From assembly GCF_003334305.1 (NCBI RefSeq), contig NZ_QOWS01000010.1: a stretch of 64,000 bases of DNA; one strand, given 5' to 3'. Source of the stretch: Escherichia coli. GTDB lineage: Bacteria; Pseudomonadota; Gammaproteobacteria; Enterobacterales; Enterobacteriaceae. This document shows positions 25,989-28,987 of this stretch, one piece after another. The translations under genes were made by a program, and so were the position numbers. Below the pieces are notes generated by a model. That model did not search any database, was not told the origin of the DNA, and worked only from the letters and a program-made list of their open reading frames with translations. Within the stretch, counting starts at the first letter, position 1; each line of letters opens with the position of its first letter.

Positions 25989-26963
25989 ATGCAATACAAC
26001 CCCTTAGGAAAAACCGACCTTCGCGTTTCCCGACTTTGCCTCGGCTGTATGACCTTTGGCGAGCCAGATCGTGGTAATCACGCATGGACACTGCCGGAAG
26101 AGAGTAGCCGTCCCATCATTAAACGCGCGCTGGAAGGCGGCATAAATTTCTTTGATACCGCCAATAGCTATTCCGATGGCAGCAGCGAAGAGATCGTTGG
26201 TCGCGCACTGCGGGATTTCGCCCGTCGTGAAGACGTGGTCGTTGCCACCAAAGTGTTCCATCGCGTTGGTGATTTACCGGAAGGATTATCCCGTGCACAA
26301 ATTTTGCGCTCTATCGACGGCAGCCTGCGACGTCTCGGCATGGATTATGTCGATATCCTGCAAATTCATCGCTGGGATTACAACACGCCGATCGAAGAGA
26401 CGCTGGAAGCTCTGAACGACGTGGTAAAAGCCGGGAAAGCGCGTTATATCGGCGCGTCATCCATGCACGCTTCGCAGTTTGCTCAGGCCCTGAAGCTACA
26501 AAAACAGCACGGCTGGGCGCAGTTTGTCAGTATGCAGGATCACTACAATCTGATTTATCGCGAAGAAGAGCGCGAGATGCTGCCACTGTGTTATCAGGAG
26601 GGCGTGGCGGTGATTCCGTGGAGCCCGCTGGCGCGGGGGCGACTGACGCGTCCGTGGGGAGAAACTACCGCACGACTGGTGTCTGATGAGGTGGGGAAAA
26701 ATCTCTATAAAGAAAGCGATGAAAATGACGCGCAGATCGCAGAGCGGTTAACGGGCGTCAGTGAAGAACTCGGTGCAACACGAGCACAAGTTGCGCTGGC
26801 CTGGTTGTTGAGTAAACCGGGCATTGCCGCACCGATTATCGGTACATCGCGGGAAGAACAGCTTGATGAGCTATTGAACGCGGTGGATATCACTTTGAAG
26901 CCGGAACAGATTGCCGAACTGGAAACGCCGTATAAACCGCATCCGGTAGTAGGATTTAAATAA
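25989..26963 (+). CDS. yajO: Aldo-keto reductase YajO
   Basis: 324-aa ORF MQYNPLGKTDLRVSRLCLGCMTFGEPDRGNHAWTLPEESSRPIIKRALEGGINFFDTANSYSDG. Confidence 0.97.
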   Translation: MQYNPLGKTDLRVSRLCLGCMTFGEPDRGNHAWTLPEESSRPIIKRALEGGINFFDTANSYSDGSSEEIVGRALRDFARREDVVVATKVFHRVGDLPEGLSRAQILRSIDGSLRRLGMDYVDILQIHRWDYNTPIEETLEALNDVVKAGKARYIGASSMHASQFAQALKLQKQHGWAQFVSMQDHYNLIYREEEREMLPLCYQEGVAVIPWSPLARGRLTRPWGETTARLVSDEVGKNLYKESDENDAQIAERLTGVSEELGATRAQVALAWLLSKPGIAAPIIGTSREEQLDELLNAVDITLKPEQIAELETPYKPHPVVGFK

Positions 26964-26968
26964 GAGTC

Positions 26969-27008
26969 CAGGCCTGATGAGACGCAACAAGCGTCACATC
27001 AGGCATCG
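26969..27008. repeat. REP-like palindromic element
   Basis: GCCTGATGAGACGC...GCGTCACATCAGGC between the convergent yajO and pgpA stops. Confidence 0.6.
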
Positions 27009-27016
27009 GTGCACAA

Positions 27017-27535
27017 CTACGACAGAATGCCCAGCGGCCAGTGATGACCAATAAAGTACAGGATGCCAGCGGAGATCACCCCGGCGACAATATCATCTAT
27101 CATGATCCCCATGCCGCCATGCACATTGCGATCAAACCAGCGGATCGGCCACGGTTTCCACATATCCAGAATACGGAAAATCACAAACCCGGCGGCAACC
27201 CACTGCCAGTCATTGGTCGGCAGCGCCATGAGCGTGATCCACATACCAATAAATTCGTCCCAGACAATGCTGCCGTGATCGTGCACGCCCATATCTTTTG
27301 CGGTCTGATGACAAAGATAGACGCCGATACAGATCCCCAGCATCACCACCAGCGAGTAGAGCTGCCAGGGCAAAAAGGTCATCAGATACCAGAACGGAAT
27401 CGCTGCCAGCGAGCCCATCGTCCCAGGAACGATCGGGCTTAATCCACTTCCGAATCCGACAGCAAGCAGATGCCACGGATTACTCATCTTCAGGCGACTT
27501 TTCGCGACATCTTTATGGCGTGGCAAAATGGTCAT
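27017..27535 (-). CDS. pgpA: Phosphatidylglycerophosphatase A
   Basis: Start at [34 protein letters not shown] (172 aa) within the 184-aa ORF-track frame. Confidence 0.92.
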
Positions 27536-28490
27536 ATCCTTTCCAGTCAAACGTGACTGGTTCGCCGTCACGAATAAAACAAAGCCCTTCGATATCGGCG
27601 GTCATTTGCCCGATACAGGTAAACGGTACGCCAAGGTGTCCGAGAGCAACATCCAGCGCGCCACGGTTCAGTTCCGGCACCGTGAAACACAACTCGTAAT
27701 CTTCACCGCCAGAGAGCGCCCAGCGCAGCGCCTGTTCCGGTTCAACATGGCGAGAAAGCGCATCAGAAAACGGCAGCAATGCCAGGTCAATACGTGCGCC
27801 GCAGTCGCTGGCTTTCACGATATGCCCGAGATCGGAAATCAGACCGTCAGAGAGATCGATAGCTGAATTTGCCAGATCGCGCAGTGCCTGCCCCTGTAAA
27901 ATACGCGGCGATGGACGGAGATGACGTTTGATCAAGTAGTCAGCATCTTTAGCATCGGCAACCTGCAAACGGTTTTGCAAAATCGCCAGCCCGGCGGCGC
28001 TATCGCCCGGTGTACCGGTCACATAGATCCAGTCACCCGGTTTCGCCCCAGAGCGCGTTAAGGCTCGTCCCATCGGAACAAAGCCGTGGATACCCAACGT
28101 CATTGATAATGGCCCACGCGTGGTATCGCCGCCAATGAGTTGCATATCGTAATAATTGAGAAGATCAAACAAACTGTCGCTGAAGGACTCAAGCCACGCT
28201 TCGTCTACGTCCGGTAAGGTTAATGCCAGCGTCAGCCAGGCCGGATCGGCCCCCATCGCTGCCAGATCGCTTAGGTTCACCGCCAGTGCTTTATACGCCA
28301 GATCAGCAGGATCGATATCATGGAGGAAGTGGTTGCCCGCCACCAGCGTATCAGTGCTGATCGCCAGGGCCTGTTTCTCGGGGATATTGAGAAGAGCGCA
28401 ATCGTCGCCGATGCCCAGTTCGACATCAAGACGAGAACTTCTTACACGGTCAAAATAACGGGCAATCAGGGAGAACTCGCCACATGCCAT
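27513..28490 (-). CDS. thiL: Thiamine-monophosphate kinase
   Basis: 325-aa [58 protein letters not shown]. Confidence 0.97.
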
Positions 28491-28567
28491 ACGTTATGCC
28501 TCAGCAGGTAAAAAAGAAAAGGCCGGCGATCGCGGAACGGTCTTCCGTGAATCTACCGGCCTGGATA

Positions 28568-28987
28568 TCACTTTTTGTTAGGGCGAATCACAGGTGCTGC
28601 TTTATCGAGTACGCCGTTGACGAACTTATGGCTGTCTTCTGCGCCGAACGATTTCGCCAGTTCGATCGCTTCGTTAATGGCCACTTTGTATGGCACATCG
28701 CTACGTTTAGACAGCTCGTACAGCGCAATGCGCAGTACTGCTTTTTCTACCTGTCCCAGTTCTTCCAGCAGGCGGGACAGGTATGGCTTCATCAGTCCGT
28801 CGAGGTATGCGGTGTTAGTCGCCACCCCGGCCAGCAGCTCACGGAAGTACAGGACGTCAACGTCTTTTACATCCTGTTCAGCCAGGAACTGGTATTCAAC
28901 ATCAGCGATGTCGTTCTGGGACAACTGCCAGGAGTAGAGCGCCTGGACGGCACACTCACGAGCGCGGCGACGAGCAGCAGGTTTCAC
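28568..28987 (-). CDS. nusB: Transcription antitermination factor NusB
   Basis: 139-aa [58 protein letters not shown]. Confidence 0.98.

Follow-up and report, generated by a model that had tools for sequence, protein, structure and literature searches.

The pgpA start codon inside thiL of Escherichia coli: an annotated 23-nt overlap, its origin in the ThiL C-terminus and its plausible role in translation

The thiL-pgpA junction

In the window, i.e., the whole 64,000-nucleotide stretch of Escherichia (E.) coli DNA analysed here, two genes meet on the minus strand. The first, thiL (27513..28490), encodes thiamine-phosphate kinase (325 aa) and ends with the stop codon TAA at 27515-27513, and the second, pgpA (27017..27535), encodes phosphatidylglycerophosphatase A (172 aa) and begins with an ATG at 27535-27533. 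The thiL gene was assigned from the list of open reading frames, the NCBIfam profile NF004350 and the RefSeq annotation, while pgpA was assigned from its translation, the profile NF008288, the domain PF04608 and RefSeq. ThiL scores 645 bits against NF004350 (cut-off 441) over residues 1-324 and PgpA 331 bits against NF008288 (cut-off 226), i.e., both proteins are recognized at the equivalog level; ThiL also scores 397 bits against TIGR01379, and PF04608 was found in all PgpA homologues listed.

The order of the cluster that had been proposed from the sequence, nrdR-ribD-ribH (also named ribE)-nusB-thiL-pgpA, is the one annotated in strains A7 and K-12, and the thiL-pgpA pair is reported to belong to one operon. 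A scan of the window found neither a terminator nor a consensus promoter between the two genes. A ThiL-PgpA fusion produced by frameshifting was considered and dropped, because there is no convincing slippery site and no homologue longer than 223 aa among the 120 listed. On the distal side of pgpA, a 53-nt spacer (26964-27016) separates this gene from the convergent yajO and contains the inverted repeat GCCTGATG...CATCAGGC, which could terminate transcription in both directions or represent a REP-like element.

On the minus strand the 3′ end of thiL reads ...AAA GGA TAT GAC CAT TTT GCC ACG CCA TAA, and the 5′ end of pgpA reads ATG ACC ATT TTG CCA CGC CAT AAA GAT... The 23 nt at 27513..27535 (minus strand) are thus read in two frames, as (Y)DHFATP* in thiL and as MTILPRH(K) in pgpA, where the pgpA frame is one base off that of thiL and the pgpA ATG takes its AT from the end of the thiL Tyr codon and its G from the beginning of the Asp codon. 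The original prediction, i.e., that pgpA starts 23 nt inside thiL in another frame, is borne out by the sequence, by the translations and by the RefSeq coordinates of A7 and K-12. In the RefSeq record of strain A7, which is 100% identical to the window over 26900-28600, thiL is found at locus positions 3611-4588 and pgpA at 4566-5084, which are equivalent to the coordinates in the window. In K-12 (NC_000913.3), thiL (b0417) occupies 435634-436611 and pgpA (b0418) 436589-437107, also with a 23-nt overlap, so that the pair in the window has the strand as well as the start and stop positions of the annotated E. coli thiL/pgpA pair. The identical pgpA start is annotated in three more E. coli records and in one O157:H7 record. 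In O157:H7 E32511, pgpA is annotated as 516 nt compared to 519 nt elsewhere; because the start is unchanged, this difference in length sits downstream.

Of 5426 complete E. coli genomes, 5425 contain the stretch 26900-28600, and the 23 nt themselves are identical in seven E. coli sequences, with a single change in E. albertii. The overlap has also been stated explicitly in the literature (PMC11143247), where it is noted that the Keio pgpA deletion takes out the last 20 nt of thiL (27513-27532 of the window, minus strand). The 23-nt overlap is, in other words, an ordinary junction that is already known, both from annotation and from the literature.

The start codon of pgpA

The in-frame start candidates for pgpA in the window are GTG 27571, TTG 27550, ATG 27535, TTG 27526 (codon 4) and ATG 27487 (Met17). 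The last of these (27485..27487, minus strand) lies 25 nt past the thiL stop, and if pgpA started here the annotation would be wrong, there would be no overlap and thiL would be followed by a 25-nt spacer. This codon is an ATG beyond the end of thiL, and Met is found at the site in 19 of the 37 Enterobacterales compared; however, the remaining 18 species carry a Leu, which in 13 of them is encoded by a non-start codon. Furthermore, the seven codons D9-L15 of pgpA (DVAKSRL; 27491..27511, minus strand), which precede Met17 and lie outside thiL, are conserved as protein. Among the 37 Enterobacterales, A11 and R14 are invariant (37/37), K12 and L15 are found in 36/37, and the codons of these four residues vary at their third positions only (GCC, GCG, GCA and GCT for A11; CGC, CGT and CGG for R14; CTG, TTA, CTT, CTC and CTA for L15). 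The first position of the NCBIfam PgpA profile corresponds to residue 7 of the E. coli protein, the AlphaFold2 model of PgpA (mean pLDDT 81.6) has a helix at residues 5-13, with only residues 1-4 below a pLDDT of 50, and Met17 is not preceded by a Shine-Dalgarno (SD) sequence (duplex −0.4 kcal/mol). The conservation at the protein level before Met17, together with the variability of Met17 itself, places the start of translation upstream of residue 9 and removes Met17 as a general start, which is why this codon was rejected; initiation there is very improbable. A downstream start of pgpA, which was named in the original prediction as the observation that would overturn it, is largely excluded by the conserved D9-L15 segment before Met17 and by the 13 species with a non-start Leu codon at this site.

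At the other extreme, pgpA could be longer in the window strain and begin at TTG 27550 or GTG 27571, with an overlap of 38 or 59 nt, respectively. In K-12 and O157 the triplet that overlaps the in-frame TTG at 27548..27550 (minus strand) is instead a TAG (tTAGac), which is found 15 nt upstream of the ATG and closes the pgpA frame. In the window, a Leu>Phe change in ThiL (TTA>TTT, 27547-27550) removes this TAG and the pgpA frame is open to GTG 27571; the same TTT allele is found in ~31% of E. coli genomes. However, the in-frame TAG is present in ~60% of E. coli genomes, and any extension of pgpA is therefore dispensable. The protein sequence encoded upstream of the ATG is also unconserved in other genera, where stops occur in this region in several cases, and pairing with the anti-SD sequence is weak at both codons, with duplexes of −4.5 and −2.1 kcal/mol at a distance of 11-12 nt. 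We consider an extended pgpA to be an exceedingly remote prospect.

Because the TAG leaves K-12 and O157 with only ATG(1) and TTG(4) as starts before residue 9, the overlap in these strains is at least 14 nt whichever of the two is used. More generally, every E. coli start upstream of the conserved N-terminal motif of PgpA falls inside thiL, and it is almost certain that the thiL-pgpA overlap is real and at least 14 nt long.

The choice between ATG 27535 and the TTG at codon 4 (Leu4; 27524..27526, minus strand), for which the overlap would be 14 nt, involves the SD-like sequence GGAAAGGA (27537..27544, minus strand). Its AAGGA is separated from the ATG by 1 nt but from the TTG by 8-9 nt, and forms an anti-SD duplex of −5.4 kcal/mol with a spacing of ~0 to the ATG and 9 to the TTG. 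The AAGGA is thus more canonically placed for the TTG, of which it would be the normally spaced SD sequence, and therefore the TTG could be the true start. A TTG is found at the codon-4 position in many Enterobacterales, and the annotated PgpA proteins of Erwinia and Pantoea (MAR..., MTR..., MTL...) appear, as read off the alignment, to begin at this codon. However, TTG is seldom used as a start codon in E. coli and is a weak one, and in this case there is an in-frame ATG 9 nt upstream. In addition, the TTG arises incidentally from the thiL codons TTT-Gxx and is missing in five taxa that keep the ATG (Siccibacter, Pectobacterium, Brenneria, Mangrovibacter and the enterobacterial metagenome-assembled genome (MAG) L018). 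The INRI-seq tables, in which the pgpA transcript is present at 57.6 CPM, list no alternative, non-annotated initiation site for this gene (PMC9825163), which also argues against the TTG. Brenneria and MAG L018 have no candidate start other than the homologous ATG, and Mangrovibacter has just one besides it, with both inside thiL; these cases, together with the retention of the ATG in Siccibacter and Pectobacterium, which lack the TTG, favour the ATG. We conclude that ATG 27535 is likely to be the main start of pgpA, and that a start at TTG 27526 is quite unlikely.

A search of the literature for direct N-terminal or initiation-site data on PgpA returned none. The accessible portion of the TRAINSPOTTER N-terminomics supplementary tables lists the N-terminus of ThiL and not that of PgpA, and a 2026 study of PgpA, in which an N-terminally His-tagged construct was used, is silent on the native start.

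Conservation and origin of the overlap

The pgpA loci of 80 species were compared, from Escherichia to distant Gammaproteobacteria, together with one Aquificaceae MAG; the set includes the 37 Enterobacterales referred to above. In 74 of these 80 species, the Aquificaceae MAG among them, thiL is found directly upstream of pgpA, which is more than would be expected by chance, and in 35 of the 74 all candidate pgpA starts overlap thiL. Conservation of the overlap across genomes had been suggested as a check on the original prediction, and this comparison supports a pgpA start located inside thiL.

Both the SD-like AAGGA and the pgpA ATG are derived from the thiL codons AAA GGA TAT GAC (K-G-Y-D; 27531..27542, minus strand). 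These codons belong to a C-terminal motif, G[YF]xHF, which is found in 68 of the 74 ThiL C-termini and is usually preceded by K in Enterobacterales. The combination TAT-GAx yields an in-frame, open pgpA ATG in 19 species, where the length of the overlap (17, 20, 23, 26, 29 or 38 nt) tracks the ThiL tail after the motif; it is 23 nt in E. coli because the residues A-T-P and the stop codon come after DHF. In 12 of the 19 the overlap measures exactly 23 nt; these include Escherichia, E. albertii, Citrobacter, Pseudescherichia, Enterobacter, Mangrovibacter and a MAG, as well as the distant Marichromatium and a tubeworm symbiont. Because the ATG and the AAGGA are made of conserved ThiL codons, it is mainly selection on the ThiL protein that keeps the junction in place.

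Where the ThiL Tyr is replaced by a Phe or is encoded by TAC, this ATG is missing and other starts are needed, i.e., the pgpA start has moved in evolution. In Yersinia, Photorhabdus, Arsenophonus and Serratia, PgpA has the N-terminus M-D-E-A-K-R-R-L, which begins where E. coli PgpA has K8, and the gene either overlaps thiL by 8 nt (ATGGATGA) or follows it after 0-3 nt. In Kluyvera, Pseudocitrobacter, Pantoea and Erwinia, all candidate starts are TTG or GTG. In Gammaproteobacteria outside the Enterobacterales, thiL and pgpA are often joined as ATGA, TGATG or ATGNNTGA (−4, −1 and −8 nt). The thiL-pgpA linkage is thus old and tight, with the 23-nt form lineage-specific and partly recurrent.

Expression of pgpA and its relation to thiL translation

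In K-12, transcription of pgpA also starts within thiL. A primary 5′ end was mapped by dRNA-seq to position 435804 (U00096.2), with support from TAP-dependent RLM-RT-PCR (PMC4681348), and by Cappable-seq to position 435805, with a relative score of 47 compared to 1.8-2.6 for the neighbouring positions (PMC4782308). With the K-12 pgpA ATG at 435813 in this numbering, the mRNA has a leader of 8-9 nt (GAAAGGAU-AUG). Romero et al. (2014, PMC4681348) list pgpA among leaderless and short-leader mRNAs, and like lambda cI and rhlB the K-12 gene has a primary 5′ end beside its ATG. It differs from these leaderless mRNAs in that the 8-9-nt leader contains the AAGGA and the 5′ end is not found at the A of the start codon. 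Because the primary start is located 8-9 nt before the ATG, at least part of the pgpA expression in K-12 is not coupled to translation of thiL.

As the −10 element of this promoter, TAgAcT was put forward in the dRNA-seq study (PMC4681348), but this sequence is located only 1-2 nt from the mapped start. We prefer TGtTACATT, which occupies exactly −15 to −7, in agreement with an extended −10, and infer that the internal promoter in K-12 uses this element. A simple sigma-70 consensus scan of the window and of K-12 found no promoter, but such a scan needs a −35 element and is therefore blind to an extended −10. In K-12-like strains, a promoter of this kind within thiL would yield extra pgpA mRNA with the 8-9-nt leader, which would be translated independently of thiL.

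The corresponding site in the window is AGTCACGTT (27550..27558, minus strand), homologous to K-12 TGTTACATT, and the K-12 transcription start is homologous to window position 27543. Within 27543-27558 (K-12 locus 6567-6582) the −10 site reads TGtTACATT in K-12, TGtCACGTT in most E. coli and AGtCACGTT in the window; ahead of the ATG there are four differences between the window (CCA GTC ACG TTT) and K-12 (CCT GTT ACA TTA). Among the 5426 genomes, the K-12-type allele CCT GTT ACA TTA is found in 1091 (20%) and is the only carrier of TGtTACATT. The allele CCT GTC ACG TTA is found in 2178 genomes (at least 3269 for the TTA alleles together), CCT GTC ACG TTT in at least 1658 and the haplotype of the window, CCA GTC ACG TTT, in a single one. 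Because E. albertii and Citrobacter carry GTC ACG, the K-12 form is derived. The ancestral −10 alleles are present in ~70% of genomes, and the window strain in addition lacks the TG. The best-fitting −10, TGtTACATT, would thus be degraded to AGtCACGTT in the window strain, where the internal pgpA promoter is, from its sequence, probably weaker or absent. A tentative and rather doubtful extension of these observations is that the expression of pgpA is wired differently among strains, with a promoter created by two synonymous thiL changes, GTC>GTT and ACG>ACA, that uncouples pgpA from thiL in the 20% of genomes of the K-12 type, and with reliance on the operon mRNA and on initiation linked to thiL elsewhere; a functional link between PgpA and thiamine phosphate metabolism might add to the conservation of the junction.

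One way in which translation of thiL could control pgpA is by unfolding of an mRNA structure that hides the pgpA start. The AUG is predicted to be unpaired with a probability of 0.69-0.92, and no sequestered initiation region that would be melted by upstream ribosomes was identified. No conserved RNA structure hiding the start was found among 17 species, for which the z-scores of the folds range from −1.8 to +1.8 and the folds differ between genera. In the window a 76-nt fold has z = −2.7, and a perfect 7-bp hairpin, CCAGUCA-CGUU-UGACUGG (27543..27560, minus strand), is found just upstream of the pgpA start; it is unconserved in other genera. The hairpin is completed by a synonymous thiL change, CCT>CCA, in a 90-nt haplotype found in one of the 5426 genomes (strain A7). 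Because the strong fold in the window depends on this private change, it lends no support to a conserved hiding structure, and the hairpin is probably incidental. Coupling of the unfolding type is not supported by these predictions.

The other form of coupling is re-initiation. In its strict form, pgpA would be translated mainly by ribosomes that have just terminated at the UAA of thiL and step backwards over ~20 nt to reach the AUG, and the output of PgpA would be tied to that of ThiL. This view is consistent with two co-directional, overlapping genes that are reported in one operon, and with the common occurrence of thiL-pgpA junctions of −1, −4 and −8 nt in other Gammaproteobacteria. It also agrees with a poor ribosome-binding site. 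Independent initiation at the pgpA start appears to be weak, as the AAGGA ends 1 nt from the ATG and no initiation peaks have been recorded. With INRI-seq, the isolated pgpA initiation region (−30 to ~+120) yielded no retapamulin-trapped peak in vitro in 5/5 replicates, and no pgpA initiation peak was seen in vivo with Ribo-RET (PMC9825163). Because the transcript was present, the missing peak suggests that the site is intrinsically weak, but this is weak evidence because ~40% of the genes in the accessible portion of the table also have no peak. A precedent for backward movement is found in phage fr, where re-initiation over the 34-nt coat-lysis overlap was demonstrated by mutagenesis (Adhin and van Duin 1990, as cited in PMC10666635). 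The lysis start resembles that of pgpA in being located tens of nucleotides before the upstream stop and in having a weak ribosome-binding site; it differs in that it is repressed unless coat translation terminates, and no equivalent block is seen at pgpA.

Other data argue against the strict form. The spacings that are enriched in genomes and support termination-reinitiation are −4, −1 and −8 (PMC10666635, PMC12548453), and the −23 spacing of thiL-pgpA is found outside these as well as outside the re-initiation window of about −8 to +6. In native E. coli pairs re-initiation is very sensitive to distance and falls steeply with it (PMC10666635), and in one series of synthetic operons, reviewed in PMC12548453, coupling weakened as the spacing went from −4 to −25, where none was left. 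The E. coli pair shares with coupled pairs such as trpB-trpA, and hyfH-hyfI, ydbH-ynbE and menD-menH (PMC10666635), the co-directional arrangement and a downstream start at or before the upstream stop. In spacing, it is the thiL-pgpA junctions of other Gammaproteobacteria (ATGA, TGATG, ATGNNTGA) that match the −4/−1/−8 pairs, while the E. coli pair, at −23, differs. Finally, a strong primary transcript that begins 8-9 nt before the AUG, as in K-12, cannot be coupled. Strict coupling is accordingly judged unlikely.

The overlap had been taken to imply translational coupling within the cluster. With a −23 spacing, no conserved structure and an internal transcription start in K-12, this implication is not warranted; coupling between thiL and pgpA is plausible, and we rate a measurable dependence of pgpA translation on that of thiL as possible, at somewhat less than even odds. 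The explanation that we find best supported, with a probability of roughly 0.7, combines an ordinary junction, a pgpA start inside thiL, weak initiation and, in K-12, an extra promoter. In the window strain, ribosomes would initiate weakly at ATG 27535 on the (nrdR-ribD-)ribH-nusB-thiL-pgpA mRNA, with help, probably modest, from ribosomes that finish thiL 20 nt downstream, i.e., by short-range re-initiation.

From these considerations, a 23-nt overlap alone should not count as evidence of translational coupling. The junction itself is housekeeping, with a standard annotation and little wider importance, yet it offers a tidy example of a conserved protein motif that seeds an overlapping start and an SD-like element. 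It also offers clean handles on the pgpA start, because changes that are silent in thiL remove the ATG (TAT>TAC) or the TTG (TTT>TTC). Small leads are the apparent variation of the internal pgpA promoter among strains and the Leu/Phe polymorphism in ThiL, which switches an in-frame stop upstream of pgpA on or off. Because the Keio pgpA deletion clips 20 nt of thiL, the phenotypes of that strain may include thiL effects. Deletion of pgpA lowers the TPP levels even with an intact thiL, and plasmid-borne pgpA rescues this effect (PMC11143247). Together with the wide thiL-pgpA linkage, the effect of pgpA on TPP hints at a functional link between the two genes beyond their co-location.
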